Positions 1,254 through 61,646 are shown, counted from the stretch's first letter. The stretch is 64,000 nucleotides of DNA from Planctomycetota bacterium (GCA_043801445.1 JAZDMB010000012.1:714-64713); one strand, 5' to 3'. Numbers and translations: made by a program. The notes: generated by a model from the letters alone, not told the origin.

Positions 1254-4200
1254 ATGCCTAAAAGAAAAGACATAAATAAAGTAATGATTATCGGCGCGGG
1301 CCCGATTATTATCGGTCAAGCCGCTGAATTTGATTATTCAGGTTCGCAAGCCTGCCGTTCCTTAAGGGATGAAGGATGCTGGGTTATCCTGCTCAATTCC
1401 AACCCCGCCACCATTCAAACCGATTTGGAAATGGCTGACCGAATCTATATCGAACCTCTTACCGTTGATACCATAGAAAAGATTATTGCCGCAGAAAAAC
1501 CTGATGGAATACTTGCCGGAATGGGCGGGCAAACGGCTTTGAACCTATGCTCTGAATTATCCGAAAAAGGAATTCTCAATAAATATAATATCCAACTGTT
1601 AGGAACTTCAGTTAAAGCCATAGCACTGGCTGAAGACCGTGAACTTTTCCGTTCATTAATGAATAAACTTAATGAACCTATACCCAAGAGTTTTTCCTGC
1701 AGTAGTTTTCCTGAAGTAAAAGAAGCGGTTAATAAAATAGGGAGCCTGCCGGTCATAATCAGGCCGGCTTATACTTTAGGCGGCACCGGAAGCGGTATTG
1801 CCCATAACGATGAAGAATTATCCGAGATTGTTAATAGAGGTTTGTCTTATTCCCGTATCAGACAGGTTTTGGTAGAAGAATGCGTTTCGGGATGGGCTGA
1901 ATTTGAATATGAAGTAATGCGTGATAGTGCTGATAATTGCGTCATTATCTGCAATATGGAAAATCTTGACCCGATGGGAATACATACCGGTGAAAGCATC
2001 GTGATTGCGCCGGCGCAGACCTTAAATGACCCTGAACACCAGAAACTACGCAATGCAAGTTTGAAAATCATTCGGGCGCTCGGCATAGAAGGCGGTTGCA
2101 ATATCCAGTTCGCCCTGAATCGTGCAACCGGTGATTATCGGATAATTGAGGTCAACCCACGTGTCTCCCGTTCTTCAGCACTTGCCTCTAAAGCCACCGG
2201 ATATCCTATTGCCAAAGTCTCTGCCAAGATAGCCATCGGTTTGACTCTTGATGAAATACCCAATCCGATTACCGGCAAAACATATGCCTTCTTTGAACCG
2301 GTATTGGATTATGTCGTTTTAAAAATACCTCGCTGGCCATTTGATAAATTCCGTATGGCTGATAAACGAATCGGTACCCAAATGAAATCCACCGGTGAAG
2401 TAATGGCTATAGGCAGGAATATCGAAGAATCTTTATTCAAAGCGATTCGCAGCCTTGACACGCACCAGATTGCATTTGAGCCGCCCCAGAACAGTTCACC
2501 TGCAGGCATAGTCAGCGAATTGGTTGAACCATCTGATATGCGACTCTATGCCATTGCCGAGGCATTCTGGCAGGGTTACCACCTCACCACCATCGCTGAC
2601 CTGACCAAGTGGAACCCGTTCTTCCTGCAGAAGATAAAGAATATCATGGACTTGGAAAGAAATATCCGCAAGTATTCATTGGAGACTATTGATAAAGAGA
2701 CGCTGATTAAAGCCAAGCAGATGGGATTCTCAGATGAATACCTCGCCCATATCCTATCGGAAGAGACTTATTCAGGACAACCCTGCGCCAAAGACAGACC
2801 CCGACAGAATTCGTCGGGACAAAATGATCCGTTGGGTCAGACACCTGCTGAAAAAGTCAGGCAAAAAGTTCAAGAATGCGGTATCAAAGTAGACTACAAG
2901 ATGGTAGATACCTGCGCCGCTGAATTTGAGGCAAAAACACCGTATTACTATTCCACTTATACCACCGGGACGGCTAAATCCGAACTCCGAACTCCAAACT
3001 CCCTGTCTCGCCAGCAGGCGGGCGCACTCGGCAAAGTCCTTGTCATCGGCTCAGGCCCGATTCGTATCGGTCAGGGCATAGAATTTGATTATGCCAGTGT
3101 TCAGGGAGCTATGGCGATTCGGCAACACGGATTTGAAGCAATTATGGTCAATAACAACCCAGAGACCGTCTCAACTGATTACGATATCTCTGACCGACTC
3201 TATTTTGAGCCAATCACCTTTGAGGATGTGATGAATATAATTGAAGCGGAAAACCCGGACGGAATAATAATCCAGTTCGGAGGCCAGACCGCAATCAATC
3301 TGGCTATTCCACTGCAAAAGGCGATTGCCAGGAACAAGAATCTCAAGACCAAATTCCTCGGGACACAACCAGAATTCGTGGATATGGCATCTGACCGCGA
3401 GAAGTTTGACGCACTCCTTTCACGGCTTAATATCAAACGTCCGCAGGGCAGCACCGGATTCTCCTTCGAAGAAGTCAGGGAAAAATCAGCCCGAATCGGC
3501 TATCCGGTTTTGGTGCGTCCCAGTTATGTCCTCGGCGGTAAGGGTATGGAAATCGTCCATAATGAAAAAGAGTTGGAATTCTATATCACATCCGCTATCA
3601 AAGTCTCCAACGAACATCCTGTGCTCGTGGACAAATATCTCAATAACGCCATTGAAATAGACGTTGATGCCGTTTCTGACGGCAAATCGGTATTCATTGC
3701 CGGCATTATGGAGCATATCGAAGAAGCCGGAGTTCATTCAGGCGATGCCATCTGTGTTATACCTCCGCAAACACTCTCGAAAAATATCATGAAAGAGATA
3801 AGACGGGTTACCAGAGAAATAACATTGGCGCTGAATTGCATCGGCCTGATTAATATCCAGCTTGCTGTCAAGGATGACGAGGTTTATATCATTGAAGCCA
3901 ATCCCCGGGCCAGCCGCACAGTCCCTTATGTTTCGAAAAGTATCGGGATACCGATTGCCAAGATTGCCACCGCCTTGATGCTCTCGCCCCTGATGAAAAA
4001 ACCGGTTAGTCTTTCTGATTTCGGACTACCGGCATTAGACAAAGAACCTGATATTTCTCATATCTCTATCAAGGCGCCTGTCTTCCCTTTCCAGAAATTA
4101 GTCGGTGTCGACCCGATTTTAGGACCCGAGATGAAATCCACCGGTGAAGTAATGGGAATTGCCGATACCTTTGCCGAAGCATATTATAAAGCGGCTCTGG

Positions 4201-4954: not shown

Positions 4955-7900
4955 ATGAAAAAGATATTATCGCTAAAAGCAAACATCACCAAAAGCGGGG
5001 TGTTAAAGGTCATCATTGGTATATTGTTTATTGGTTGTCTTACTATCTTTACTACCGAAATAACCTATGGGAGTAACTTAACCTTTAATGCTGTTAGGTT
5101 ACCACCGACCTGCATCACTCATCCTGCTACCAATATAAATTCTAATTCAGCTAAATTAAATGGCATGGTCAATCCTAATGGTTCTATCACTACGGCTTAT
5201 TTCCAGTGGGGTATGACTGCTTCATATGGGAATACCACAACTTCACAGTCCATCGGTAACGGGACAAATCATGTCCCGGTTAATACAGATATAAGCGGAT
5301 TATCAGCTAGTACCAGATATAACTTCAGAATTGTTGGAATCAATGCTAATGGAACAAGATATGGTAATAATCTGACCTTTACTACCAGAGGACTACCACC
5401 GACCTGCACTACTAATCCTGCTACAAATGTTACTCATTACTCAGCTAAATTAAATGGTTCTGTTAATTCTAATGGCATTGCTACACTTGCCTATTTCAAT
5501 TACGGCAAAACTATGTCATATGGTATCAATGCCGGTTATCAATTCATCTTTGGCACGACTCCTGTCAATGTTTCTGCTGCCATAAACGGATTATCATTTA
5601 ATACACTATATAATTTCCGGTTGGTTGGGACCAATTCTGCCGGAACAACATATGGGAATAATCTGACCTTTACTACTACTGGAATACCACCGACCTGCAT
5701 CACTACTCCTGCTACCAATATCACTTATAACTCAGCTAAATTAAACGGCATGGTCAATCCCAGGGATTCTATTACCACGACTTATTTTCAATGGGGTACG
5801 ACTGCTTCGTATGGGAATGCCACATCTTCACAGTCCATCGGTAGCGGGACAAGTTATGTTGCGGTTACGGCTAATATAAACGGATTATCAGCCAGCACAC
5901 GGTATAACTTCAGAGTGATTGGAACAAATACTAATGGAACAACCTATGGAAATAATCTGCCCTTTATTACTGCCGGACTACCACCGACCTGCACCACTAA
6001 TCCTGCTACAAATATTACTCATAACTCAGCTAAATTAAATGGTTCTGTCAATCCTAATGGTCCTTTCGCAATTGTCTATTTCAATTACGGTAAAACTATG
6101 TTATATGGCATCAATGCCGGTTATCAATTCATCTTTGGCAGAACTCCTGTCAATGTATCTGCTGCCATAGCAGGATTATCATTAAATACATTATATAATT
6201 TCAGGGTGGTCGGAATCAATGCTAATGGAATAACATATGGGAATAATCTGACCTTTACTACTCATGGAATACCACCAACATGCACTACTTATGCGGCTGA
6301 TAATATTACTTATAATTCAGCCAGATTAAATGGCAGGGTCAATCCTAAGGGTTCTATCACCACGGCTTATTTTCAGTGGGGGACAACTGCTTCATATGGG
6401 AATACCACAGCTTCACAGTCCATAGACAGCGGGACAAGTTATGTTCCGGTGCAGGGAGATATAAGCGGATTATCAGGAACTACACTATATAATTTCAGGG
6501 TGGTGGCAATCAATTCAGGAGGCACGACTAATGGAAATAATCTAACATTTACCACCGCAGTCCCACCACCAAATGCACCAACTAATTTAATCGCGACAAC
6601 AATGTCCAACAATTGCATACATCTTCAATGGACTGACAATTCAGATAACGAACAGGGATTTATAATAGAGCGTATAAATGAGTTAGAAACTGAAACAACA
6701 TGGGAATGGACTGACTATATGCAGGTTGCTGTAGTTGGTCCGAATATCATCTCATATTCTGATTGTAACCTTATATCAGGAGCCTACTATGGATATCGGG
6801 TTAAGGCATATAATGTTAATGGTCATAGTGAATATTCTAATGAGAGTTTTGTTGCTACACTACCTGTTGCGCCGATAAATCTTACCGCAACAACTGTTTC
6901 TTACAAACAAATAGACCTCAAGTGGGTTAATGTATGTAACAACTATAATGTTGGGGTTGGAATAGAACGCTCCACTGATGGAATAAACTATGAAGGTATT
7001 GGAGGATGTACTGCCGGTTTATCTGAGTTTAGTGATACTACTCTTCAACCAAATACCACTTACTATTATAGGGTTACAGCAGTTAATCGTGCTGGTCTAA
7101 GTCAGGATTTCGCTACCACATCAGTAACAACATTACCTCTTACAATTGCATATGCTATTTCAAATGTTAACAATTTATATCAAGCGAACTTGATTACAGA
7201 TGCAGCACTTTATACTTTCCTCATTGTGAACCTTAACGATGCTCAGAACTTCTATAATATTGGCGATATGGGTACAGCAATTGCTATATTGGAAATGGTA
7301 CAGAATCACATATGGCCAGCATTGGGTCAAGGAATTGACCAACAATCTGGCGAGGGACTCTATGACTATGTAGGCGATTTAATTTATTCAACTATGTCAG
7401 CCGCTGGTGAGACGCCTCAAACCACACATAAGAAAGCAATAGATAATGCAGCCAAAGATGCCAATAATAAAATAGACCAAAATGAAAGTTTGACCGACAG
7501 TCAAAAAGCAACACTTAAGCAGAAGATAGAGGAGATTAGCAGAACCGGCAAGGCTCTTATTAATATATATACACCAATGTCACCCCATCTCAATTCGGTC
7601 ATGGATACGATAGGTGAATGGACTATAAATAGAATGTCTCAGGCAGTTAGTAGGACGGATACCTGTCCTGAAGGATACTCTTGTGATGTTGAAATCAGTA
7701 GTATAGATGGTCAGAAACATGTTCCAGATCCAATTACTGGGACAATTGAACTCTCTAAAAAAGACTGGAAGTACACAGGCTCTATTGGTTTCAAGGCTAA
7801 AGGACCTGCCGGCAGTTCAATCGCAGGGACTTTCAATGTACAGCATTCACATCCTCCTCCGGCTACATTTAGATTTTATGATCCAGAACCACCGCACCGG

Positions 7901-8077
7901 ATAAGAACTGGACTTGTTGATAAAGACAAATCGAACTCGGGGATAAGCGATTTGGTACTAACTGACTTCTCATTAGGAGAAGTATGTAATTTAATTTATA
8001 TTAAGTTTGAGATTACAGATGCAGAAACAAAAAAACCAATATGCGGTAAAAAGATTATGATACATCTTGCAGAATAA
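4955..8077 (+). CDS. large secreted/cell-surface repeat protein (5 tandem ~97-aa repeats, 2 fibronectin-III-like domains, unique C-terminal region)
   Basis: N-terminal hydrophobic anchor/signal (VLKVIIGILFIGCLTIFTT). Five 'PPTC..PATN(I/V)...AKLNG.VNPNG...Y(F)(Q/N)(W/Y)G...YNFR.VG.N..G..YGNNLTFTT' repeats. Two 'P.AP.NL.AT......I.L.W.D.S.NE.GF.IER' Fn3-like units. SD-like AAAGGAAA upstream. Confidence 0.85.
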   Translation: MKKILSLKANITKSGVLKVIIGILFIGCLTIFTTEITYGSNLTFNAVRLPPTCITHPATNINSNSAKLNGMVNPNGSITTAYFQWGMTASYGNTTTSQSIGNGTNHVPVNTDISGLSASTRYNFRIVGINANGTRYGNNLTFTTRGLPPTCTTNPATNVTHYSAKLNGSVNSNGIATLAYFNYGKTMSYGINAGYQFIFGTTPVNVSAAINGLSFNTLYNFRLVGTNSAGTTYGNNLTFTTTGIPPTCITTPATNITYNSAKLNGMVNPRDSITTTYFQWGTTASYGNATSSQSIGSGTSYVAVTANINGLSASTRYNFRVIGTNTNGTTYGNNLPFITAGLPPTCTTNPATNITHNSAKLNGSVNPNGPFAIVYFNYGKTMLYGINAGYQFIFGRTPVNVSAAIAGLSLNTLYNFRVVGINANGITYGNNLTFTTHGIPPTCTTYAADNITYNSARLNGRVNPKGSITTAYFQWGTTASYGNTTASQSIDSGTSYVPVQGDISGLSGTTLYNFRVVAINSGGTTNGNNLTFTTAVPPPNAPTNLIATTMSNNCIHLQWTDNSDNEQGFIIERINELETETTWEWTDYMQVAVVGPNIISYSDCNLISGAYYGYRVKAYNVNGHSEYSNESFVATLPVAPINLTATTVSYKQIDLKWVNVCNNYNVGVGIERSTDGINYEGIGGCTAGLSEFSDTTLQPNTTYYYRVTAVNRAGLSQDFATTSVTTLPLTIAYAISNVNNLYQANLITDAALYTFLIVNLNDAQNFYNIGDMGTAIAILEMVQNHIWPALGQGIDQQSGEGLYDYVGDLIYSTMSAAGETPQTTHKKAIDNAAKDANNKIDQNESLTDSQKATLKQKIEEISRTGKALINIYTPMSPHLNSVMDTIGEWTINRMSQAVSRTDTCPEGYSCDVEISSIDGQKHVPDPITGTIELSKKDWKYTGSIGFKAKGPAGSSIAGTFNVQHSHPPPATFRFYDPEPPHRIRTGLVDKDKSNSGISDLVLTDFSLGEVCNLIYIKFEITDAETKKPICGKKIMIHLAE

Positions 8078-8138
8078 CCGACAAAACAATAATATCTTGG
8101 TTAATCTGGCTGTGAAATGGAATGAGGTAGAGGATGAG

Positions 8139-9491
8139 ATGAAGTCTTTTATTATCTTGTTTATTTTGATAATTTTTATAGCAGTGGCAGGCTATTTTAT
8201 TATCAAGTGTTATCATCCTGACTCTTTGATTTCGCCTCCTTTTGAGCAAGACAAACATACTATAGAAAAGCATGTTGCAGATAAGAGGGATTCTAATCAA
8301 ACCAATATCCCAAAAAACATTGTAATAACATCTGATTTATCTGACCGAACAACAGCATCTGGTTCATCCTGCAGTTATACTACGGCAAAAGATTCTACCT
8401 CTGTAGAAGATAATTACTTTGATGATCTTCCCACTCGGATCCGGCAGACTGTTCCCGCTTCCGAACGACCGGCAAAGATTAAAGAATGCATTCGCCGATT
8501 AAAGGAAGAAAAGGCAAAATCACCATCATTCATTGGGGCGTGTGTTACGATTGTTGCACTTGACGCTAAAGAAGCAATCCCTGAATTAATAAACCTTCTG
8601 GATGATGAAGGCAAATGCTATATGGCTATGGTAACCCTTGGCGGGCTCGGCGCTAGAGAAGCAATTCCTAAAATAATGAACCTTCTGGATGATGAACACG
8701 AAGGCCTTACAGCCCTGCAAACCCTTGTCCGGCTTGGCGCCAGAGAGGCAATTCCTAAAATAATGACTTTACTGAATGATAAATATGCGGAAATACGAGC
8801 GGCTGCTGCTCAAAGTCTCAGCACCCTCGGTGCCAAAGAAGCAATTCCTGAAATAATGAACCTGCTGAATGATGAAAGTGGTCAAGTGCGCCTGGTTGCC
8901 GCTTGTGTTCTCGGCGACCTCGGCGTCAAGGAAGTAACAATCCCTGAATTAATAAAACTGCTGAATGATAAAAGTATTTCAGTACGTCTGTCTGCCGCTT
9001 GTGCCCTCGGCGACCTCGGCGCCAAAGATGTAGCAATTCCTGAACTAATAAAACTGCTGAAAACAACTGGAGATATATCTTCCTCTTTGTACATATCCGC
9101 TGCTCGTGCGCTCGGTAGACTTAACGCCAGAGAAGCAATTCCTGAACTAATAAAACTACTGGGTGACGAACGTGGTGATGTACGCCGGGCAGCCGGTGAT
9201 GCACTCGGTCAACTTGATGACATAGAGCCAATCCTTGAATCAACAAATCAGCCGATAGATGATGATTCTTTGTGGGCGTATAAAATAGCATTATCTATTA
9301 ATCCCAAAGACGCCTCAGCTTATCTTAATATGGGGTGCATTTATGAGGGGAGGTTAGATAACCTTTCCAAGGCACTTTTCTACTATACCGAATATCTGGA
9401 ATTGGCGCCACCAGATGCATGTGAGCGTAAGGATGTGGAACGATGGATTAAGGACTACCACAAACACTTTAATCATTCTCGTTCTAAGTAA
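8139..9491 (+). CDS. membrane-anchored HEAT-repeat (PBS-lyase-like) protein with C-terminal TPR-like motif, paralog 1
   Basis: About 9 repeats of 'AKEAIPELI(K/N)LL(N/D)DE...VR..AA.ALG.LG'. N-terminal TM helix MKSFIILFILIIFIAVAGYFII. I prefer the ATG at 8139 (GAGGTAGAGGATGAG upstream) over the track's TTG at 8067, which overlaps the preceding gene. Confidence 0.85.
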   Translation: MKSFIILFILIIFIAVAGYFIIKCYHPDSLISPPFEQDKHTIEKHVADKRDSNQTNIPKNIVITSDLSDRTTASGSSCSYTTAKDSTSVEDNYFDDLPTRIRQTVPASERPAKIKECIRRLKEEKAKSPSFIGACVTIVALDAKEAIPELINLLDDEGKCYMAMVTLGGLGAREAIPKIMNLLDDEHEGLTALQTLVRLGAREAIPKIMTLLNDKYAEIRAAAAQSLSTLGAKEAIPEIMNLLNDESGQVRLVAACVLGDLGVKEVTIPELIKLLNDKSISVRLSAACALGDLGAKDVAIPELIKLLKTTGDISSSLYISAARALGRLNAREAIPELIKLLGDERGDVRRAAGDALGQLDDIEPILESTNQPIDDDSLWAYKIALSINPKDASAYLNMGCIYEGRLDNLSKALFYYTEYLELAPPDACERKDVERWIKDYHKHFNHSRSK

Positions 9492-9587
9492 ATGATATCG
9501 GCAATTCGAGTGAATTCGGGGGGCTCATCGCAATAACCTGCCCGACTGGACCCGGTCAGGCGGGCAGGAAAGTAAACGAGGTTGATT

Positions 9588-10329: not shown

Positions 10330-10644
10330 ACACGTATTGGTATCAATGCCATATGACCTCAAAACAGTTCAATCTCAGCGACTTTTTCTGCACAGAGTAC
10401 AGGTCCACTTAGATTTGGATTTTATAATCCAGGACCACCGCCGCGGAGAACAACTGGATTAAGTGATAAGGATCCATCGGACTCAAAGATAAGCGGTTTG
10501 CTACTAACCGACTTCTCAGAAGGAGAAGTATGTGATTTGATTTATATTAAGATAGAGATTATAGATGGGAAAACAATAGATGAGAAAACAGGCAAAGGCA
10601 AAGTGATATGTGGTAAAAAAATTATGATACATCTTGCAGAATGA
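10330..10644 (+). pseudogene. 3'-terminal remnant of a paralog of the 4955-8077 surface protein
   Basis: The nucleotide and protein sequence parallels the last ~95 codons of 4955-8077 (…FYNPGPPPRRTTGLSDKDPSDSKISGLLLTDFSEGEVCDLIYIKIEI…ICGKKIMIHLAE* versus …FYDPEPPHRIRTGLVDKDKSNSGISDLVLTDFSLGEVCNLIYIKFEI…ICGKKIMIHLAE*). In-frame TGA at 10354 and no start codon. Same junction to a HEAT-repeat gene as in copy 1. Confidence 0.8.
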
Positions 10645-10705
10645 CCGACAAAACAAGAATATCTTGTTTAATCTGGCGGTGAAATCGAATGAGGTAAAGG
10701 ATGAT

Positions 10706-12055
10706 ATGAAGTCTTTTATTATCTTGTCTATTTTGATAATCTTTATAGTAGTGGCAGGCTATTTTATTATCAAGTGTTATCATCCTGACTCTTTGGTTTC
10801 GCCTCCTTCTAAGCAAGACAAACATACTATAGAAAAACATGTTACAGATAAGAGGGATTCTAATCAAACCAATATCCCCAAAAACATTGTAATAACATCT
10901 GATTTATCTAATCAAACAATAGCATCTGGTTCATCCTGCAGTTATACCACTGCAAAAGATAAGAACTACTCTGAACTTGCCGAACGGCTCCGGCAGACTG
11001 TTCCTGATTCCGAACGACCAGTGAAGATTAAAGAATTCATTCGCCAATTAAAAGAAGCAAAGGCACAATCACCACTATTCATTGGGGCGTGTGTTATGAT
11101 TCGCGCACTTGACGCTAAAGAAGCAATCCCTGAATTAATAAACCTTCTGGATGATGAAGACAAATGCTATATGGCCATGGTAACCCTTGGTGGGCTTGGC
11201 GCCAAAGAGGCAATCCCTAAAATAATAAACCTTCTGGATGATGAACGCGAAGGCCTTACAGCCACAAGAGTTCTTGGTGAACTCGGCGCCAAAGAGGCAA
11301 TTCCTAAATTAATGAATCTGCTGAATCATAAATATGAGGAAATGCGTGTGGCTGCTGTTCAAACTCTCAGCAAACTTGGCGCCAAAGAGGCAATCCCTGA
11401 ATTAACAAATCTGCTGAATGATGAAAGTGGTCAAGTGCGTCTGACTGCCGCTTGTGCTCTCGACAACCTCGGCGTCAGAGATGTAGCAATCCCTGAAATA
11501 ACAAAACTACTGAATGATGAAAGTATTTCAGTGCTACTGTCTGCCGCTTGCGCCCTCGGCGACCTTGGCGCCAAAGATGTAGCAATCACTGAACTAATAA
11601 AACTGCTGAAAACTGGAAAGCTCGCGCCGCCCGTCGCGTCCGTCTTCCGCGCATCCGCCGCTCGTTCACTCGGCAGATTTGACGCCAGAGAATCAATCCC
11701 GGAACTAATAAAACTACTGGATGATGAAGCTTGGGAGGTACGCCAGGCAGCTGGTGATGCACTCGGAGAACTTGATGATAAAGAGATAATCACTGACCCT
11801 AAACCAACGGAACCACTGAGAGATAAAGATTCTTTGTGGGCGTGTAAAATAGCATTGGCTATTAATCCCAAAGATGCCTTAGCTTATCTTTATATGGGAG
11901 TTATTTATCACGATAGATTCGATAACCCTTCCAAGGCAATTTTCTACTATACCAAATATCTGGAATTGGCGTCACCAGATGCACGTGAGCGTGAGGATGT
12001 GGATCGAGGGATTAAGGACTGCAACAAACGCATTAATCATTCTCGTTCTAAGTAA
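10706..12055 (+). CDS. membrane-anchored HEAT-repeat protein, paralog 2
   Basis: Colinear with 8139-9491: same N-terminal TM helix, same HEAT repeats, same C-terminal '...INPKDA.AYL.MG.IY......N.SKA.FYYT.YLELA.PDA.ER.DV.R.IKD......HSRSK'. The ATG at 10706 corresponds to 8139. Confidence 0.85.
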   Translation: MKSFIILSILIIFIVVAGYFIIKCYHPDSLVSPPSKQDKHTIEKHVTDKRDSNQTNIPKNIVITSDLSNQTIASGSSCSYTTAKDKNYSELAERLRQTVPDSERPVKIKEFIRQLKEAKAQSPLFIGACVMIRALDAKEAIPELINLLDDEDKCYMAMVTLGGLGAKEAIPKIINLLDDEREGLTATRVLGELGAKEAIPKLMNLLNHKYEEMRVAAVQTLSKLGAKEAIPELTNLLNDESGQVRLTAACALDNLGVRDVAIPEITKLLNDESISVLLSAACALGDLGAKDVAITELIKLLKTGKLAPPVASVFRASAARSLGRFDARESIPELIKLLDDEAWEVRQAAGDALGELDDKEIITDPKPTEPLRDKDSLWACKIALAINPKDALAYLYMGVIYHDRFDNPSKAIFYYTKYLELASPDAREREDVDRGIKDCNKRINHSRSK

Positions 12056-12142
12056 ATGATATCGGTGTACCTGCGACACACATCTGAACAAGCCAAAAAT
12101 ACCCAAAAACTAACGGGAAATTAATCAACAAAGGATGAATAA

Positions 12143-12437
12143 GTATCCCAAGGGATGACTGGCTTGTTCCAAGGGACGAAGGGTTTGTACTCAAGAACAG
12201 CTGAGTTGTACCAAGGAATAATTGGGCTGTTCCAAAGAACGAACGGTTTGTACTGAGGGACGAAGGGTTTGTACTGAAGAACGACTGAGTTGTACCAAGG
12301 AACAATTGGACTGTTCCAAGGAACGACCGGCTTGTACTGAAGAACGAACGCTGGTACTCAAGAACGAATGGCTTGTACTGAGGAACGAAGGGTTCATCCC
12401 TAGGGCTGAACGGTTTAGACTCAGGGATATCTGAGAT
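12143..12437 (+). repeat. 21-bp tandem repeat array 3 (about 14 units, with an 84-bp higher-order period)
   Basis: Units start at 12166, 12187, 12208, 12229, 12250, 12271, 12292, 12313, 12334 (a 20-bp unit), 12354, 12375, 12396 and 12417. A typical unit is GTACTGAAGAACGACTGAGTT. The 4-unit block 12187-12270 is repeated at 12271-12353. Confidence 0.9.
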
Positions 12438-12532: not shown

Positions 12533-12560
12533 TTGACACAGACTGTTTTTTGATTATAAT
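12533..12560 (+). promoter_or_regulatory. sigma70-like promoter candidate for 12783-14948
   Basis: TTGACA (12533-12538), 16-nt spacer, TATAAT (12555-12560). Implies a ~220-nt structured leader. Confidence 0.4.
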
Positions 12561-12782
12561 AATTAATTAGACGAAGCAAGAAAACTTCGTAACCACAGAC
12601 AAACACAGATTGACACAGATAATTGACGATATTTTATAAGGAATCCATTAGACCAAGATTAATCCTTTCTTGTATTCTTGGTCTCTTTATAGACATATCG
12701 TATTGCTCTGTGAACTCTGTGGCTAATTTTTACCTGTGCCCGTAGGGTATACTTTCCTATACCTTAAAAAAAGGAGTAGTTT

Positions 12783-14948
12783 ATGATTAACATACTGAAA
12801 GGTATCAGCGGATTTATTATAATAGCCATCGTGATAGCATTGGGGTTCGGTATTGTCCGGGCAGTTCCGGTCGGTAAGGAAACGCCAAAGCAGGAGAAAG
12901 CTACACCGGTACAGAGCGAGACCAAAGAAAAAACACCTGCCCGACTGGACACCCAGTCAGGCGGGAAAGAGGAACAAACTCCCCGCGAAAAGGAAATATG
13001 GATTTATAAACTGATTCATAAACTGGAGACTTCGCAAGACCTGTGGGTCAAAGTGGAGGCGGTAAAAAAACTGGGCGAGTTAAAAGACCCCAAGGTAATC
13101 ACGGCACTTGCCAGAGCGCTCAATGACGAAAGTGTTGATATCTGTGTGGAAGCGCTGCGCGCCCTAAAGAAAATAGGCGATGCCGAATCGCTCAAACTAC
13201 TTATGACCGGCACCGTCATCTACGATATGCAGTCACTCCGTTTCTATGCCCTTGAAGCAGCCCTGGCTATCGACCCGGTAAAAACCCGGGAATTCCTTAA
13301 AGCCAATTTCAAAAGCGTATTTCCTAATGTCCGCAATAATGCCGCTGAATCACTGGCGAATCTGGTCACTCTCACCAATAAAAGAGACAAGGAATCTATC
13401 GAACAATTAGTGAGTCTTTTAAGCCATGAACCGAATAAAGACAATCGTGAAAAAATAGCAGAATCACTAAATCTCATTACTCAGGCTGAACTGACCTCTG
13501 CAGAACCCAAAGACTGGCAGGAGTGGTGGCACAAGAATAAAAAAACCATGAGCGAAAATATAAAAACCAAAGAAGTGATTACAGGGACGGAAAAACCGGA
13601 AACAAAACCGAGCCCTGAAAAAAAAGCCAAAGCCATTAAACAGAAAAAAGCGCAGGATGAATTTGATGCGTTCAAAGACAAGACAATCCTGGACAGAAAT
13701 CCCGACGACCCGACCAAATCCTATTTCGCAGGCCGTTCTGAGGAAGGTAAAACGCTCTCAGTAGCCGCATTTGCCAACGGTGACAGCCGCGTCCTGAAAC
13801 TGGTGGAAGACGCCCTTAACTGGCTGCAGCGTCACCAGGAAAAAGAAGGATTCTGGGACTATAACGGCTATGTTAAACACTGCCATTCCAGTCCGCCAGG
13901 GGCAGATATATCTCCGGCACAGGGTAACCCGCCGGAGGTGGGTCTGCCTCAGGCACAGGGCAGCAAGGAAAAAACTGCATCCGACAAGAAGAAGACTGCA
14001 TCCGATAAAACAGACGATACCACCGAGATTAAAGGTGATTATGACGTAGCCGTAACAGGCTTGGCATTACTGGCATTCCTCGGAGCCGGACATACTCATA
14101 TGCCGGGCCAGAAAGTCGGATTACCGGCCGGCGGAAAATATAAACCTACTGTAGAACGCGGACTGCACTGGCTGGTTTCCAATCAGAACGGCGACGGCAG
14201 TTTCCGCAATCCAGTCACAGGCGGTGTCGGCAACAAGGTCAATATGTTTGAACAGGCGATGGCAACACTGGCGATATCCGAGGCATACGGCATGACCGGC
14301 GACGAAACGCTGAAAGTCCCGGCGCAGAAGGCGATGAGCTTTATCAATTATGCCAAGAACCCGGGCAAGGGCTGGCGTTATACGCCTAATTGCAGCGATA
14401 ACGATACCTCTGTTGTCGGCTGGCAGGTCTTTGCACTGAAATCAGGCAAGGTTTCAGGTCTGGACATAAACCGCAACGATTTCGTTGACGCATCCAAATG
14501 GCTGGATGATATGACTAATTTAGAAACTGCCCGGGTCGGTTATAACAAAAAAGGAACCGGCTCTACTGCCATTACTTCTATCGGCATTATCTGCAAGATG
14601 CTTCTGGGCTGGCGTAATGATTCGCCCATTTTACAAAAGGGAGCGGAAATCGTCCTTAAGGATGACTCTTACCAGGGCGAGACACAGGATTTCTATCATA
14701 TCTACCAGACCTCTCTGGCGATGTTCCAGATGGGCGGACGCTACTGGGAAAACTGGAATAGCCAGATGACAAATTTCCTGGGTAATGCAGCCGTCAAAGA
14801 AGGCTGTGAACACGGCAGTTGGTCTGCCCGGATTGAGAAATGGTCTAAAAGCAGGGTTTACACCACAGCACTTGGCGCACTGTCGCTGGAAATCTATTAC
14901 CGATACCTGCCATTTGCCAGAACTGAAAAGTCAGAACAGCCGATGTAG
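12783..14948 (+). CDS. membrane-anchored HEAT-repeat / prenyltransferase-squalene-oxidase-repeat protein
   Basis: N-terminal TM helix. HEAT-like units follow (KVEAVKKLGELKDPKVITALARALNDESVDICVEALRALKKIG). The C-terminal half has terpenoid-cyclase-type repeats (QNGDGSF, GKGWRY, EHGSWS, LGALSLEIYYRY). SD AAAAGGAG. Contains two in-frame GC-rich elements. Confidence 0.85.
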   Translation: MINILKGISGFIIIAIVIALGFGIVRAVPVGKETPKQEKATPVQSETKEKTPARLDTQSGGKEEQTPREKEIWIYKLIHKLETSQDLWVKVEAVKKLGELKDPKVITALARALNDESVDICVEALRALKKIGDAESLKLLMTGTVIYDMQSLRFYALEAALAIDPVKTREFLKANFKSVFPNVRNNAAESLANLVTLTNKRDKESIEQLVSLLSHEPNKDNREKIAESLNLITQAELTSAEPKDWQEWWHKNKKTMSENIKTKEVITGTEKPETKPSPEKKAKAIKQKKAQDEFDAFKDKTILDRNPDDPTKSYFAGRSEEGKTLSVAAFANGDSRVLKLVEDALNWLQRHQEKEGFWDYNGYVKHCHSSPPGADISPAQGNPPEVGLPQAQGSKEKTASDKKKTASDKTDDTTEIKGDYDVAVTGLALLAFLGAGHTHMPGQKVGLPAGGKYKPTVERGLHWLVSNQNGDGSFRNPVTGGVGNKVNMFEQAMATLAISEAYGMTGDETLKVPAQKAMSFINYAKNPGKGWRYTPNCSDNDTSVVGWQVFALKSGKVSGLDINRNDFVDASKWLDDMTNLETARVGYNKKGTGSTAITSIGIICKMLLGWRNDSPILQKGAEIVLKDDSYQGETQDFYHIYQTSLAMFQMGGRYWENWNSQMTNFLGNAAVKEGCEHGSWSARIEKWSKSRVYTTALGALSLEIYYRYLPFARTEKSEQPM
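13927..14006 (+). repeat. GC-rich ~62-bp element, in frame inside CDS 12783-14948
   Basis: ACCCGCCGGAGGTGGGTCTGCCTCAGGCACAGGGCAGCAAGGAAAAAACTGCATCCGACAAGAAGAAGACTGCATCCGATA, translated as NPPEVGLPQAQGSKEKTASDKKKTASD. Confidence 0.8.
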
Positions 14949-14996: not shown

Positions 14997-15998
14997 TTAT
15001 CCCCTCAACACGACCACATCAAATGTATTATCCGCTATAGCCGGCTGGTTTAGTAAGATTGAAACACCTGTGCCTTGCGGTAACCCAGGTAACAGGAATA
15101 GTTGCCTGATTAACTGGTCTTGATTCGTGGGAATAGAGTAACCTAAAATCACACCGCCATTCAAATCCGGGTCTCCCAAAGGCGGATATAACCCGCCTAC
15201 TTGTAATGCTGGAATTGTGATGCTGACAATCTTATAACTTAATTTAGTTTTCGATACCGCGCCATCGGCAATTTCACCTGTTGCAACAGGAGGGACTAAC
15301 GGCCTCACCGCTCCACCCGGAACAAAAGACAATTTCTCCGGTGTTACTGCACCGTTACTAATCTTGGCGGTCTCTACTGCGTTCGTGGCAAGTTTAGCAG
15401 CAGTAACTGCGCTGGATGCAATCTTCTGAGCGATTATTGAAGCATCGGCAATCTCATCAGTCGCAACCGGTGGCGTTATCGGGCGGACAATAGACGGCGG
15501 AACAAAAGACAATTTCGCCGGAGTTACCGAGCCATTGGCTATCTTCTCCGTTGTAACCGCACCATTCGCTAACCGAGCACTGCTAACTGCCCCAGATGCA
15601 ATCTTCGCACTCGTTACTGCGCTGGTGGCAATCTTCTCGGTCGTTACTGCGCCATTGATTATCTTCTCGGTGATAACGGTATTCGGTTGTAGGTGAGCGG
15701 TGCTAATTGCGCCATTCGCTAGTCGCTCACCGCTAACCGCTCCAGGGGCAATCTTCAGTGTTGTTACTGCGCCGGTGGCGATTTTCTCAGTTGTGACACA
15801 TGCATCCTTTAACCGGGAACTGCTTACCTGTTTCTCGCCGATTTTATCACGGGTCACCGCTCCATTAGCAATCTTTTCGGTAGTTACACTTGCAACCTGT
15901 AACTTAGAACTTGAAACCTGCAACTCGCCTATTTTAGGCGCTGTCACCGCGCCGTTAGCAATATGCTCGGTCTTTACCTCATTCGGTAATAATGACAT
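14997..15998 (-). CDS. decapeptide-repeat (fibre-like) protein of unknown function, cassette copy 1 gene B
   Basis: About 19 units of 'T(E/D)KIA.GAVT'-type 10-residue repeats, then a C-terminal domain nearly identical to that of 61733-62587. No signal peptide. Confidence 0.8.
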   Translation of the reverse strand: MSLLPNEVKTEHIANGAVTAPKIGELQVSSSKLQVASVTTEKIANGAVTRDKIGEKQVSSSRLKDACVTTEKIATGAVTTLKIAPGAVSGERLANGAISTAHLQPNTVITEKIINGAVTTEKIATSAVTSAKIASGAVSSARLANGAVTTEKIANGSVTPAKLSFVPPSIVRPITPPVATDEIADASIIAQKIASSAVTAAKLATNAVETAKISNGAVTPEKLSFVPGGAVRPLVPPVATGEIADGAVSKTKLSYKIVSITIPALQVGGLYPPLGDPDLNGGVILGYSIPTNQDQLIRQLFLLPGLPQGTGVSILLNQPAIADNTFDVVVLRG

Positions 15999-16073: not shown

Positions 16074-16733
16074 CTATGGACTGACCGTGCATTTGGCGGT
16101 TTCGCTGAACGGACCCGTGCGTATCTTCTTATCAAACCACTGCGCCCGGTATTCCACATTAGTCGGCTCGGTTATTGCCAGATTGTGTAAATAGGGGCTG
16201 TTGGTGTCATCCGCCACGAATGTCCACGGCCCGCTTTCTATCCGATACGAGATTCTTGCACCGGCAATGTCAGCCGGCTTGGCATTGCGTTTCTCATTGG
16301 ACGGGTTAACGCCGAAATGAACCGTCACCTGTCCGCGCTGTTTCCAGTCCAGAATCAGGTTAGGTGGCGCCAGATTCAGCACATAGTCCGGCGGAATCGG
16401 GGTCGGTTCCCTATCCGGCACGGTAATTGCCAGAATTTCGCGGTTTGCGTCGGTCATCCCCGGATGTTTCTGGAGCATCCCTGCCACAGCCCTGACCGCA
16501 TCTTTAGCAGCATCACGCAATTCATCCTTGTTTTCTGCGGCTGATTGGGCGGTATTTTGTGCCGTCTGGAGCGCCACATAACCAATCAGCCAATCATCAT
16601 AGGCATCGGTTACTGCGGTAATCAAAGCCGGGGCAATCCCCAGCGGAGTCGCAATCACACTGATATTAGTGCTGAAATTACGAAGCCATTCGTCAAACTG
16701 GGCGTCCACCCTTGGTATATAATCTCTTGCCAT
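16074..16733 (-). CDS. hypothetical protein (helical N-terminal half, beta-rich C-terminal half), cassette copy 1 gene A
   Basis: Paralog of 60939-61613 (YIP..DA.F..W..NF..., ...DTNSPY.HN..., ...AQWFD...R.GPF). Strong SD AGGAGGTGAAAT before the ATG. Confidence 0.8.
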   Translation of the reverse strand: MARDYIPRVDAQFDEWLRNFSTNISVIATPLGIAPALITAVTDAYDDWLIGYVALQTAQNTAQSAAENKDELRDAAKDAVRAVAGMLQKHPGMTDANREILAITVPDREPTPIPPDYVLNLAPPNLILDWKQRGQVTVHFGVNPSNEKRNAKPADIAGARISYRIESGPWTFVADDTNSPYLHNLAITEPTNVEYRAQWFDKKIRTGPFSETAKCTVSP

Positions 16734-16796
16734 ATTTCACCTCCTACTTTACCATAAGTTATTACAGTTACAGTTGTTATGCAAATTATCCGGTGC

Positions 16797-17076
16797 CTGA
16801 AACAAACCGGTCGTTGCTCTCTACGAACCGGTCGTTGCCCTCTACGAACCGTTGTTGTCATCTACGAACCGGTCGTTGCCTTCTACGAACTAGTCGTTGC
16901 CCTCTACGAACCAGTCGTCGCTCTCTACGAACCGGTCGTTGCTTTCTACGAACCGGTCGTTGCCCTCTACGAAACATCGTTGCCTTCTACAAACCGGTCG
17001 TTGCCCTCTACGAATCCCTTGTCGCTCTCTACGAACGAGTTGTCGCCCTCTACGAACTTCTCGTAGCTCTCTACAA
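16797..17076 (-). repeat. 21-bp tandem repeat array 1 (about 13 units), upstream of cassette copy 1
   Basis: The plus-strand unit is CTACGAACCGGTCGTTGCCCT (gene orientation TCGTAGAGGGCAACGACCGGT). Two units are 20 bp, which shifts every reading frame. Confidence 0.9.
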
Positions 17077-17089
17077 ATCACCTCCTTTC
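17077..17089 (-). promoter_or_regulatory. 13-nt complement of the 16S rRNA 3' tail (GAAAGGAGGTGAT) at the head of array 1
   Basis: The minus strand reads GGAAAGGAGGTGATTTGTAG, the same motif and TTG as at 60533-60549, but here the TTG is followed immediately by TAG. Confidence 0.6.
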
Positions 17090-17102
17090 CGTATAGTTAA
17101 TA

Positions 17103-18119
17103 TTAAGAAAAGAGCATTACGATTTTAGTAGTCAGATAGGCAATCAATCCGCAACAGGGGAAGGTAAGAATCCAGGCAAAGACCATCTGACCGGAGACGC
17201 CCCAGCGGACTGAGGATAGACGTTTAGTAGCACCCACGCCCATTATTGCCGTATTGATGGTATGGGTGGTGGAAAGGGGTATACCCAGACGCGAGGCTAT
17301 TTCAATGGTCACAGCTGCAGCAGTCTCAGCCGCAAAGCCATTCACCGGCTCCAACCTGGTTATCTTGAATCCCATCGTCTTCATAATTTTCCAGCCTCCG
17401 AAGGCAGTGCCGATAGCCATTGTCATGGCACATAGAATGATAATCCAAATAGGAACATGGAATCCCTGGCTTTTGAATACATCCATTGGAATCACACCAC
17501 CCAAGGCTAGAGCCAGCGCGAACACTCCGATAAATTTTTGGCCGTCGTTAGTGCCGTGGCTGAAAGCCATAAAGGCAGAAGAGAAAATCTGGGCTTTACT
17601 GAATATATTTACGCCGGCGCCCCGCTTGATTCTGGCAAAAAGCAGGTAAATCAGGGACATAAGAATAAATGCTCCGATAAATCCGAGGAAGGTGGAAAAT
17701 GCCAGTCCAATTAGGACCTTTTTCCAGCCAGCCCAGAGAAGAACTGATACACCTGTCTTGGCTATGCCCGCGCCGGCAAGCCCGGCAACCAAGGCATGCG
17801 ATTCACTGGTAGGCAATCCGAAATACCAAGCAACGGTGGAGAATATAATAATACCCAGCATGGCTGATCCGATGGTGGTCAGGTTAATCACCGAGGGATC
17901 AACGATGCCTTTGCCTATGGTCATTGCCACGGCCGTGCCAGCCAGCAGAACTCCCATCAGGTTCAAAATCACGGTCATAAATAAAGCCTGAACTGGCGAG
18001 AGTACACGGGTTGATACTACAGTAGCCATAGCATTGGGCGCATCGGTCCAGCCGTTGACAAACTCTGCCCAGAGAATAAGGAGCATGACTATAATTAATC
18101 CGATTGAGATATCAGGCAT
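17103..18119 (-). CDS. PiT-family inorganic phosphate transporter
   Basis: Polytopic membrane protein with N- and C-terminal PiT signatures (WTDAPNAMATVVSTR; FSHGTNDGQKFIG). Overlaps the upstream PhoU-like DUF47 gene, the usual pairing. Confidence 0.9.
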   Translation of the reverse strand: MPDISIGLIIVMLLILWAEFVNGWTDAPNAMATVVSTRVLSPVQALFMTVILNLMGVLLAGTAVAMTIGKGIVDPSVINLTTIGSAMLGIIIFSTVAWYFGLPTSESHALVAGLAGAGIAKTGVSVLLWAGWKKVLIGLAFSTFLGFIGAFILMSLIYLLFARIKRGAGVNIFSKAQIFSSAFMAFSHGTNDGQKFIGVFALALALGGVIPMDVFKSQGFHVPIWIIILCAMTMAIGTAFGGWKIMKTMGFKITRLEPVNGFAAETAAAVTIEIASRLGIPLSTTHTINTAIMGVGATKRLSSVRWGVSGQMVFAWILTFPCCGLIAYLTTKIVMLFS

Positions 18120-18744
18120 ATTTTAGGATAACCCCCTCAATAACATTAGCCACATCTTCGCAGTAATCAATGGCAGTTTCCAAATCTTCATAGATTTCTT
18201 TCCATTTAATGACATTAATAGGATTATTCTTCTCGCGCTCAAAAAGTGAAGTCATTGCCTTACGCAATAATTGGTCTCCTTCATTTTCAACTGTATGAAT
18301 ATTAACACAATGAGATATTGTTTCTTTAGAATTCTTGATATTTCGTAAGCCGGTAATTGCCTGAGTCACGATATCGGTGGCTTTAATCAACAATTCAGCA
18401 AATGACTTGGCTTCAGGAGTAATCTCATCTATTTTATAAAGCGCTAAACGGCCGCTTGCCCCATCCATCAGGTCAAGAACATCATCTAACTTGGTAATGA
18501 GTTCGTGGATATCTTCGCGGTCAATTGGAGTTATAAATGTCTTATTAAGCATTTCTATAGTTTGATGAGTAAGTTCGTCGCCTTGATGTTCAATATCTTT
18601 AATGATACTTACTTTTTCTCCAAGTGATTCAGGGTAGTTTTTCATCAAGTCATCTAATGCCCGGGCGCCGGCTGAAACATTCGCAGATGATTTTTCAAAC
18701 ATCTCGAAGAACGCCTTGTCCTTGGTTACCAGTGAACTAATCAT
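18112..18744 (-). CDS. DUF47 / PhoU-like phosphate-transport accessory protein
   Basis: Helical-bundle protein with the typical start '...KDKAFFEMFEK' and conserved '..ENEGD.L.R', coupled to the PiT gene. Start is uncertain: ATG at 18744 (AAAGGA 8 nt upstream), 18765 or 18783. Confidence 0.8.
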   Translation of the reverse strand: MISSLVTKDKAFFEMFEKSSANVSAGARALDDLMKNYPESLGEKVSIIKDIEHQGDELTHQTIEMLNKTFITPIDREDIHELITKLDDVLDLMDGASGRLALYKIDEITPEAKSFAELLIKATDIVTQAITGLRNIKNSKETISHCVNIHTVENEGDQLLRKAMTSLFEREKNNPINVIKWKEIYEDLETAIDYCEDVANVIEGVILKYA

Positions 18745-18891
18745 ATTTGTTCCTTTCTTGAACATCTGGCGCCGAAGCGCCATGGCGCCCTTATGGCGCC
18801 ACTTTCTTTTAGTTGCTGGAAGTATAAGAAAGATGTGTTAAGGAATTATAAAGAATTTATTAAATCTTGGTGAACCCCGTTAGAAGTGGTA

Positions 18892-26533: not shown

Positions 26534-27271
26534 ATGAAAACATTAGATTTCTTATTAACACTTGCTACATTTATCACCTTTGTAATAGCCGTATATATAT
26601 TTTCCACTGACCCAACAATTACTAAATCAATTAACTGGGCAGAAGACAGAGTTCCCCAAAACGAAGCGCTGATTAAATCGCAAACCCAAAATATTACTTC
26701 GACGGTCACCACATCACCCAATGCATTATTGAAACAGGGAAACTCTTCTCTTCCGCCAAAGGCGGATCTGCCGAAGGCACAGGGAAGCAAGGAAAAGACT
26801 GCATCCGACAATAAAGATTATCCACCTAATCCTGCATGGAAGTATATTGTTATTCACCATAGCGCCACTAAACAAGGAAATGCCCGTATCTTTGATAATT
26901 ATCATCGTAAAGAAAAAGGTATGAAAGAAGGTTTGGCTTATCATTTTGTAATTGGTAACGGAACAAAATCTAAAGACGGCGAGATTGAGATTGGCAATAG
27001 ATGGAAAAAACAAATCGCTGGTGAGCACTGCTGGAATACCAAAATGAATCAAGAATCTATTGGTATCTGCCTGGTTGGTAATTTTGATGAATCGAAACCT
27101 ACCCCAAAACAGATAGAATCACTTATCAATCTAATAAGTAATCTACAGAAACAATATCACACACCTTCGGAAATGATTTTATCACACAAAGATGTGGATA
27201 AGAAACGAACGGACTGTCCCGGTAAATATTTTCCTGCGAAGGAAATAAAATCACGCCTTAATTCCTTTTAG
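26534..27271 (+). CDS. membrane-anchored N-acetylmuramoyl-L-alanine amidase (Amidase_2/PGRP fold)
   Basis: TM helix, a linker containing a GC-rich element, then 'IVIHHSAT......YH....G..GLAYHFVIGNG....GEIE.G.RW......H......N..SIGICLVGNF......P...Q...L..L...L......I..H.D.....TDCPG..FP'. Confidence 0.88.
   Translation: MKTLDFLLTLATFITFVIAVYIFSTDPTITKSINWAEDRVPQNEALIKSQTQNITSTVTTSPNALLKQGNSSLPPKADLPKAQGSKEKTASDNKDYPPNPAWKYIVIHHSATKQGNARIFDNYHRKEKGMKEGLAYHFVIGNGTKSKDGEIEIGNRWKKQIAGEHCWNTKMNQESIGICLVGNFDESKPTPKQIESLINLISNLQKQYHTPSEMILSHKDVDKKRTDCPGKYFPAKEIKSRLNSF
26748..26810 (+). repeat. GC-rich ~62-bp element, in frame inside the amidase CDS
   Basis: CTCTTCCGCCAAAGGCGGATCTGCCGAAGGCACAGGGAAGCAAGGAAAAGACTGCATCCGACA, translated as LPPKADLPKAQGSKEKTASD. 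Confidence 0.8.
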
Positions 27272-30211: not shown

Positions 30212-30273
30212 TCTTCCCGCCAGAGGCGGGTCTGCCTATGGCACAGGAGAGCAATAAAAAGACTGCATCCGAT
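30212..30273 (+). repeat. GC-rich ~62-bp element, intergenic compact copy
   Basis: CTTCCCGCCAGAGGCGGGTCTGCCTATGGCACAGGAGAGCAATAAAAAGACTGCATCCGATA, between folE and the glycosyltransferase gene. Confidence 0.8.
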
Positions 30274-30348
30274 AATCTTTATTAGCGTTTCTCAACAATA
30301 GTTATAATTTTACAATATTATTAAATTTACTACAAAATATAAGTAATA

Positions 30349-51766: not shown

Positions 51767-51856
51767 AACACGAATGGCACGAATGCGACGAATAGCACGA
51801 ATATTAAAATATAATCTCTTATTCGTGAGATTCGTTTTATTCGTGTGATTCGTGTT
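51767..51856. repeat. CACGAAT-word long hairpin element (empty)
   Basis: AACACGAATGGCACGAATGCGACGAATAGCACGAAT ... ATTCGTGAGATTCGTTTTATTCGTGTGATTCGTGTT. The termini are shared with the copy at 1144-1241. Confidence 0.85.
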
Positions 51857-60390: not shown

Positions 60391-60420
60391 AGCCAGTAGG
60401 AACGAAGTGACGTACTGGCT
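60391..60420 (+). terminator. hairpin immediately after the TonB-receptor stop codon
   Basis: AGCCAGTA-N14-TACTGGCT (8-bp stem). No clear U-tract. Confidence 0.3.
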
Positions 60421-60444
60421 CTTATCCCGATGAGTCCCAGAGGG

Positions 60445-60540
60445 ACGACATCGGGGTTAGAACCGGTTTGAGCGTGGCGACATCGGGGTTAGAACCGATT
60501 TGAACGTAGCGACATCAGAGCTAGACCCGGTTAGAAAGGA
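60445..60540 (+). repeat. three tandem 32-bp repeats
   Basis: ACGACATCGGGGTTAGAACCGGTTTGAGCGTG / GCGACATCGGGGTTAGAACCGATTTGAACGTA / GCGACATCAGAGCTAGACCCGGTTAGAAAGGA. The third unit runs into the SD-like motif. Confidence 0.85.
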
Positions 60541-60546
60541 GGTGAT
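60532..60546 (+). promoter_or_regulatory. 15-nt complement of the 16S rRNA 3' tail (TAGAAAGGAGGTGAT) at the head of array 2
   Basis: Perfect complement of a Bacillus-type 16S 3' end ...AUCACCUCCUUUCUA. Followed by TTG at 60547. Confidence 0.6.
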
Positions 60547-60557
60547 TTGATACAAAG

Positions 60558-60725
60558 GGCAGGGAAGGTTTTTCAGACGTCTGGAATAGTTTTCCAGATA
60601 TCTGGAACAGTTTCCCATATGTCTGGAATTATTTTCCAGATGTCTGGAATGATTTCCCAGATGTCTAGAATAGTTTTCCAGATGTATGGGAAAGTTTTCT
60701 GGATGTTCGTGAAAGTCCTACGAAT
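60558..60725 (+). repeat. 21-bp tandem repeat array 2 (8 units), upstream of cassette copy 2
   Basis: Units fall exactly at 60558, 60579, 60600, 60621, 60642, 60663, 60684 and 60705. The consensus GTCTGGAATAGTTTTCCAGAT carries the internal dyad TCTGGAA-N5-TTCCAGA. Confidence 0.9.
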
Positions 60726-61613: not shown

Positions 61614-61646
61614 AAAAATAAGTAACTTGCCACAGAGGCACTAAGT

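Follow-up and report, generated by a model that had tools for sequence, protein, structure and literature searches.

RNAs of the CsrB/RsmZ type carry many short hairpins with GGA loops at irregular spacing, and the spacing of plasmid iterons resembles that of direct repeats of ~20-22 bp. Contiguous direct repeats of ~20-22 bp lie upstream of the operon in the ParR/parC systems of pSK41 and R1, where cooperative binding takes place along one DNA face (PMC5016525). Within a family of type III toxin-antitoxin (TA) loci the length of the repeat unit is conserved while its sequence and the number of repeats diverge, and the loci are found in multiple copies and in variable contexts (PMC5086642). 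A further precedent is STAB-SD, an SD sequence in the leader that lies far from the true start codon and pairs with the 3' end of 16S rRNA, not initiating translation (PMC4113751).

The window analysed here is a stretch of 64,000 nucleotides of Planctomycetota DNA, whose minus strand carries the PhoU_div and PiT genes and the two genes that we call gene A and gene B alike (Table 1). Between the PiT stop codon and gene A lies array 1, running from 17076 to 16806. As the original prediction had it, the array is composed of 13 head-to-tail units; split at the unit start, 11 of them are 21 bp long and two (TTGTAGAAGGCAACGATGTT and TCGTAGATGACAACAACGGT) 20 bp. The spacings from one GTAGA to the next are 21, 21, 21, 21, 20, 21, 21, 21, 21, 21, 20 and 21, and TRF calls the repeat at 16805-17057 with a period of 21 bp, 12.1 copies, 82% matches and a score of 310. 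The core of the consensus, read in gene orientation, is CGAC-CGG-TTCG, and eight copies with at most three mismatches to the consensus are observed against none expected. The array had also been described as filling the whole gap between PiT and gene A. It occupies only 271 of the 369 nt, with a header on its 5' side and, on its 3' side, a 72-nt non-repeat spacer that includes the ribosome-binding site of gene A. The recurring block of the spacer might possibly act as a promoter or at the RNA level, and similar blocks are found 3' of arrays in related loci (L053, L001/L054, L002, L055, L056). On the minus strand a sigma-70 match was found neither in the spacer nor upstream of array 1, and 16734-16805 holds no site resembling a terminator. 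Array 1 may be co-transcribed with PiT.

Table 1. Positions of the repeat arrays and neighbouring features in the window.
Feature	Position	Strand	Description
PhoU_div	18112-18783	-	
PiT	17103-18119	-	PF01384, E 7e-90
Header	17074-17088	-	AAAGGAGGTGATTTG; last 3 bases are the first 3 of unit 1
Array 1	16806-17076	-	13 tandem units, consensus TCGTAGAGGGCAACGACCGGT
Non-repeat spacer	16745-16805	-	block at ~16752-16785, TTTGCATAAC..TAACTGTAATAACTTATGG, recurring in relatives
Gene A ribosome-binding site	16737-16744	-	GGAGGTGA, 3 nt 5' of ATG
Gene A	16074-16733	-	219 aa, helical hairpin and FN3-like sandwich
Gene B	14997-15998	-	333 aa, phage-tail-fibre-like 11-residue repeats
Array 2	12148-12422	+	family-type 21-nt array, unit TTGTACYRAGGRACGAAGGGT, not followed by gene A
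Header and array 3	60535-60727	+	~8 units, GTTTTCCAGATGTCTGGAATA, 7-bp arms; heads cassette copy 2
Cassette copy 2	60939-62587	+	gene A' 60939-61613, gene B' 61733-62587

That array 1 stands at the head of a cassette is borne out by the recurrence of the two-gene cassette at 60535-62587, where gene A' and gene B' are 41% and 56% identical to their counterparts in copy 1. REP-like hairpins (CCCGATG...CATCGGG, several copies in 60400-60900) stand on either side of array 3, which is also flanked by a 32-bp tandem repeat of 2.8 copies (60446-60536). The unit of array 2 is identical to that of array 1 in 13 of 21 positions, the covariance model matches array 2 on the plus strand up to 12422, and units of the same type head gene A in two related loci (L056, L012). 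Array 2 comes after the second copy of a segmental duplication of a HEAT-repeat gene block (7864-9501 and 10410-12065, 80-94% identity).

In its architecture the locus is closest to type III TA loci. As in ToxI/ToxN, AbiQ, CptIN and TenpIN, tandem direct repeats lie directly upstream of the gene for a protein of ~200 aa, on the same strand and in the same orientation. However, the unit here is 21 nt long and found in 5-15 copies, compared with 34-45 nt in 2-5.5 copies. The Rho-independent terminator between array and gene is missing at array 1; some relatives have GC-rich spacer hairpins without U-runs. The protein differs as well, since the AF2 model of gene A shows an N-terminal helical hairpin (H10-28, H35-89) and a C-terminal FN3-like sandwich (overall pLDDT 86, N-terminal part 94; FN3 fold matches were obtained) and not an endoribonuclease of the ToxN, AbiQ, CptN or TenpN type, nor is there a PADLOC match. 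With both the terminator and a ToxN-type toxin missing, the locus does not belong to this class. The reading that we favour, tentatively and with somewhat less than even confidence, is that array 1 is a non-coding, transcribed 5' leader of hairpin repeats in the mRNA of gene A and gene B.

For an analysis beyond the window we fetched 57 loci (318 kb in total), of which 42 have a full-length gene A preceded by 200 nt of DNA or more. In every one of these 42 loci, no further than 450 nt upstream of gene A, there is an array whose period is 21 or a multiple of this number. Conversely, none of the 42 TRF rows with period 21 and at least 4 copies in the 318 kb falls anywhere but upstream of gene A. 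Of the 43 arrays with periods of 12-36 nt, 42 have a period of exactly 21. The positional bias relative to genes proposed earlier therefore holds, and we can reject the view that the arrays are random expansions. The MAGs with arrays are labelled Planctomycetota, WOR-3, Stahlbacteria, KSB1, Elusimicrobia, Bacteroidia and others, and the association reaches Bacteroidia homologues of gene A with only 24-26% identity. Gene A is the sole conserved partner of the arrays; the other neighbours vary. In at least 14 arrays fewer than 45 nt separate the last unit from the ATG of gene A. Higher-order periods of 42, 63 and 84 are present, and 20-bp units are found in four other arrays besides array 1 (L055, L056, L033, L014).

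The unit sequences are almost wholly different between loci, even within one genome. The gene A protein of L053 is 93% identical to that of the window, yet its units are very different, whereas units of the array 1 type are found in L055 (gene A 79% identical) and in L064-L068 (68%). Unit type thus does not track gene A identity, which points to turnover or exchange of the arrays independent of gene A; co-variation of gene A with unit type was rejected on the same grounds. Replicate Hainich assemblies were available for two loci, with identical arrays in one pair (L061, L062) and one unit-level difference in the other (L058, L059). The exact array 1 unit was not found in metagenomes. In a WOR-3 MAG (L021, 2700-2862) the unit is the reverse complement, in 20 of 21 positions, of the unit in an Elusimicrobia MAG (L040, 207-433), so the same repeat can occur in both orientations relative to gene A. 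Contigs often end inside the array upstream of gene A (L059, L060, L063-L068, L019, L032, L050, L053), and the array of L068 holds an N-gap. Of 11 contigs examined, 9 end in an array. The arrays evidently break short-read assemblies, so that true unit numbers are under-reported and gene A loci are systematically truncated in MAGs.

No Rfam 15 family was found in the window at gathering score, or at E values up to 1 in 16650-17150, and in eight related loci Rfam 15 found tRNA only. Our literature search gave no matching description of 21-bp tandem arrays of this kind. We conclude that the 21-mer arrays are a conserved and apparently undescribed class of element.

The exact header 15-mer has two sites in the window, one at the 5' border of array 1 and one at that of array 3; none of 100 shuffles reach this count. 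Part of it, AAAGGAGGTGAT, is a perfect 12-nt complement (14 nt in array 3) to what we take to be the conserved 3' end of 16S rRNA. The gene A ribosome-binding site sequence has just three sites in the 64 kb, namely the two headers and the binding site itself. Related loci carry the header at the 5' edge of their arrays too (L001, L002, L004, L034, L033, L068), and the 13-mer has a single site in each of L001, L002, L004 and L034, invariably right before the array, and is present in L068 as well. The header is restricted to about half of the Planctomycetota arrays and is missing from L055 despite array-1-type units. In array 1 a TTG stands 3 nt past the complementary stretch and is directly followed by TAG, giving TTG-TAG. 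By its spacing, the header SD is predicted to be too close to this TTG for efficient translation start. Strong SD sequences with mini-ORFs of 1-3 codons (TTG-TAG, TTG-GTA-TAG, GTG-GCG-CCA-TAA) are found at the 5' edge of several Planctomycetota arrays (window 17074-17076, L002, L033, L058).

The header resembles the STAB-SD of Bacillus thuringiensis cry3A: an SD-like leader sequence, matching 12-14 nt of the anti-SD, stands 3 nt from a TTG and then a TAG, and judging from its complementarity it would pair with 16S rRNA and not start productive initiation. In contrast to the header, STAB-SD is a single element without a repeat array and its mechanism relies on RNase J1, while the header is limited to about half of the Planctomycetota arrays. 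A ~60-nt element, GTGGGAGAGACCTCTGGTCTCGATTCTCAAGGTCAGGAGACCTTTCCCAC, was seen just 5' of arrays in loci of the CSMAG/WOR-3 type (L016 1050-1110, L018 3510-3570, L039 ~3640-3700), with variants in L010 and L035. It resembles two hairpins closed by GTGGGA/TCCCAC, and in L018 it sits between a ATGAATGATTT header and the array.

The header also raises the question whether the arrays are translated. An upstream ORF of 7-codon repeats could run, or could until recently have run, from the header to the gene A ribosome-binding site and act by coupling, not by its peptide, array 1 being a decayed example. The period equals seven codons, a strong SD and a TTG mark the 5' edge, and in array 3 this TTG opens a frame of 73 codons through the array. 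Among the WOR-3/CSMAG-type arrays that begin with ATGAAKGATTTRGGGAGG, 10 of 11 are open in that frame, and none has an indel unit. In L027 an SD, a 6-nt gap and a TTG are followed by an ORF across the array that stops in the gene A ribosome-binding site, and several ORFs of this kind also stop within that site, several of them 2-5 nt before the gene A ATG. In comparison with L068, a stretch of 13 nt after the TTG and ahead of unit 1 is missing from array 1.

However, in array 1 itself all gene-sense frames are closed, with 3, 6 and 5 stops (0, 0 and 1 on the plus strand). The four long ORFs that the original prediction had noted across the region do exist, and their repeat phase shifts at the 20-bp units, which break the frame; the earlier view that array 1 is non-coding is upheld. 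Units of 20 nt are also present in the four other arrays named above. Across the family, open frames are no more frequent on the sense than on the antisense strand (44 versus 55 of 102), and the frame with SD and start is open in 12 of 22 arrays compared with 23 of 44 for other frames. A 3-nt periodicity is insignificant in conservation (p 0.16) and in polymorphism (p 0.25-0.38). The core is read in different frames, for example as E-W-F in L057 and N-D-S in L010, the predicted peptides share no pattern, and a fusion of array and gene A is found in none of the 100 homologues listed. We therefore consider translated repeats decidedly unlikely, and a gene for a heptad-repeat (coiled-coil) protein was rejected because of the closed frames, the missing enrichment of open frames and of periodicity, and the unrelated peptides. 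A role of translation that is independent of the sequence is possible in some relatives.

We aligned 38 consensus units by sequence alone. Their oriented shared core has an information content of 7.3, compared with 4.5 in column-shuffled controls, and one orientation relative to gene A is shared by 29 of 34 arrays. The inner pairs of this core, CGAA-YGR-TTCG, are conserved in identity around a single dyad axis that is fixed relative to the core, and no other axis is comparable. Positions 1-9 on each side of the axis are Watson-Crick complementary in 47-79% of the arrays, against ~25% about every other axis. The outer pairs are complementary although each draws on 3-4 pair types, and their counts are matched by 0-1 of 2000 shuffles. 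Paired cells make up 70.5% compared with 51.6% in shuffles (0/500), and the covariation score is 0.524 compared with 0.215 (0/500), falling to 0.09-0.17 when the partner column is slid. On the gene-sense strand the central base is G in 29 of the 38 arrays, A in five, T in three and C in one. The junction dinucleotide is self-complementary in none of the 38, where 9.3 would be expected. The ACGA-N5-TCGT dyad noted earlier in array 1 is present and coincides with the family axis, but taken alone it does not rise above chance, as 5 of 40 column shuffles reach it.

Folded as RNA, the arrays have a mean z of -4.7 relative to dinucleotide shuffles, and array 3 reaches -10.7. The string of small hairpins that had been predicted is therefore supported for most family members but not for array 1, whose folding is on a par with that of shuffles (z -0.02 and -0.29); L034 and L035 lack a fold signal as well. 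Array 1 retains 6 of 9 pairs about the family axis and is a weak family member, in which the core is kept, most of the outer-arm pairing is lost and 20-nt units are tolerated. The 1-nt deletions of its units sit in the apex region, where they would be tolerable to a hairpin. The two strands fold with the same stability (-4.74 and -4.79), and G-U is not more frequent than A-C in stems (135 versus 140, 244 versus 231 and 29 versus 23), a comparison of low power since the non-paired cells look random.

Palindromes could also arise by template switching, without selection. A functionless satellite, that is a hairpin-prone repeat persisting beside gene A by slippage and template switching, would account for the very fast turnover that leaves different units beside 93% identical genes, for the periods of 42, 63 and 84 that are typical of unequal exchange, and for mismatches that resemble neutral mutational noise. 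It is difficult to reconcile with an association that holds in 42 of 42 loci, down to the 24-26% identical Bacteroidia proteins and across variable neighbourhoods. The orientation, the core motif and the strand-specific centre are all conserved and the junction dinucleotide is never self-complementary, and we regard a mere satellite as very unlikely.

The same symmetry could reflect binding sites in DNA. The original prediction had suggested cooperative binding of a dimeric protein, and in such an arrangement the arrays would be phased dyad operators, occupied every two helical turns on one DNA face and controlling the cassette. The exact 21-bp period throughout the arrays, the conserved dyad axis and the inner half-sites CGAA/TTCG, conserved in identity, fit this proposal. 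The equivalence of the two strands, with equal fold z and no G-U excess, and the reverse-complement units of L021 and L040 are likewise in keeping with it. A likely promoter region separates array 2, and also the array of L021, from the next gene, and the ribbon-helix-helix protein ParR on its tandem-repeat centromeres is a precedent (PMC5016525). Left unexplained are the outer arms, which swap identity yet stay complementary although a shared protein would not need that, the strand-specific central base (G in 29 arrays against C in one), the many arrays that come within 45 nt of the start codon and reach up to the ribosome-binding site, and the 20-bp units of array 1 and of the four arrays mentioned before. 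As a recognition site only the inner core is conserved, and the rest changes between loci while staying complementary. No DNA-binding partner was found for the arrays: there is no conserved neighbour besides gene A, gene A has no DNA-binding fold or family, and 93% identical copies of it stand beside very different units. The DNA-binding mechanism is not favoured by our results, and we think it rather unlikely.

The locus shares with ParR/parC and the iterons the contiguous direct repeats of about 20-22 bp upstream of an operon, but there is no ParM, ParA or Rep partner, the neighbours being PiT, gene A with its FN3 domain and gene B. Each chromosome carries at least 10 different arrays, searches of phage, plasmid and IMG/VR collections did not find gene A, and the outer arms covary and are not conserved. 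A Pho-box (PhoB/OmpR) array, suggested by the adjacent PiT and PhoU genes, was rejected because the adjacency to PiT is not conserved; the array of L055 follows a gene for a Gly-rich protein, and other neighbours are unrelated.

The hairpin-leader reading rests on the constant position upstream of gene A, the missing coding capacity of array 1, the fold signal of most arrays, the fixed orientation, the strand-specific centre, the covarying outer arms, the SD header and the arrays close to the start codon. Each family unit would be a small palindrome with the conserved apex CGAA-YGR-TTCG, a G in the centre of the sense strand and freely covarying outer arms, and the leader would fold into a row of short hairpins with linkers of ~2 nt. 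In the clade of the window the long SD header, which in array 1 leads to no more than TTG-TAG, may dock the 30S subunit in a STAB-SD-like manner, and header and repeat leader together may set the stability or the translational yield of the cassette mRNA. The array is probably a control element, and we infer that it is transcribed and acts on expression at the RNA level. Transcription is supported by the purine and anti-SD bias of the sense strand, which is mRNA-like and equals that of the gene A coding sequence, and by the arrays that end close to the start codon and by near-consensus promoters immediately before the array in L009 (TTGACA-17-TATCAT) and in L057. Several observations speak against the leader reading, namely the arrays that show no fold signal (array 1, L034, L035), the equality of the two strands, the missing G-U excess, the missing sigma-70 match upstream of array 1 and a header that roughly half of the Planctomycetota arrays lack. 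Furthermore, the hairpin model accounts for the strict 21-nt period only via inheritance and the cost of unpaired indels.

The conserved apical motif in many similar short hairpins is reminiscent of CsrB/RsmZ sponge RNAs. These, however, are stand-alone sRNAs with GGA loops at irregular spacing, whereas the arrays have an exact 21-nt period and a YGR apex, and their hairpins would belong to an mRNA leader. We also looked at the array as a ribosome sponge of SD-like motifs. Complementarity to the anti-SD is higher on the sense than on the antisense strand in 28 of 34 arrays, but the excess equals that of the gene A coding sequence and so reflects a mere mRNA-like purine bias; the sponge was rejected.

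The family of gene A is uncharacterised. Its ~100 homologues (52 genomic loci) all come from uncultured bacteria, and many MAGs carry at least 10 copies in variable contexts. No database record was found for the gene A proteins of the window. Gene A has no match in Pfam, NCBIfam or PHROG, relaxed Pfam scans and a PDB profile search gave nothing, and no fold match better than E 6 was obtained for the N-terminal model; a DNA-binding or ribbon-helix-helix protein was rejected on these grounds. Gene B matches phrog_892, tail fiber (E 1e-42), and T7 tail-fibre or Peptidase_S74 domains are present in its homologues. Its place behind gene A is specific to Planctomycetota; in the other lineages gene A is a lone gene amid unrelated neighbours. 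The two gene B copies of the window differ by blocks of the 11-residue repeat (333 and 284 aa), are nearly identical in their C-terminal ~110 aa and both show a weak match to the PADLOC model PD-Lambda-5_A (E 1e-7 to 1e-9).

The constant pairing of array and gene A raises the question whether the protein acts on the repeats. In such an RNA-protein module the transcript would be cut or read as 21-nt hairpins bound by the gene A protein, and the geometry of the complex would fix the unit length, as in type III TA pairs. Gene A as the sole conserved partner, its strongly conserved basic motif NEKRNAKP and the presence of at least 10 modules per MAG in variable contexts all fit this, as does a unit of fixed length with varying sequence and copy number, known from ToxI-type antitoxins (PMC5086642). 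Gene A is not ToxN-like, though, and has no match to a defence family, array 1 has no terminator between array and gene, and the gene A sequence does not track the unit type. We give this possibility little credence. A broader proposal, which we also hold to be fairly unlikely, is that array and gene A form a new self-contained RNA-protein module, present in many copies per genome in several uncultured phyla, whose transcript is read or processed in 21-nt hairpins either by the FN3 protein or by the ribosome via the header. The assembly of protein and RNA may in that event fix the unit length, and the module may be a system for the control of expression or assembly that is unrelated to known riboregulators and to type III TA.

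If the hairpin-leader reading is true, the arrays would be a large class of cis-elements, absent from Rfam and from the literature found, with a fixed 21-nt unit, a conserved apex and covarying arms. This class would be tied one-to-one to an uncharacterised gene family with at least 10 copies per genome, in groundwater and sediment lineages without cultured members. It would offer ~40 independent natural variants for testing how a repeat leader tunes expression, and it would flag gene A, and in Planctomycetota also gene B, as products under unusual dosage regulation.

Some further sequence features were seen in the course of this work. A sigma-70 consensus, TTGACA-16-TATAAT, lies at 12533-12560 on the plus strand, ~140 nt downstream of array 2 and ~220 nt upstream of a HEAT/prenyltransferase-like gene (12783-14948). 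Intergenic clusters of the short repeats CACGAAT/CACAGAT are found at 1142-1245, 12590-12640 and 51769-51855 in the window and at 2915-3075 in L021, where a cluster of the ACACAGAT type stands between array and gene A; these clusters may be the binding motif of another regulator. Finally, a 62-nt sequence is present three times with 79-85% identity (13929-13990, 26753-26814 and 30217-30278), inside or near different ORFs.
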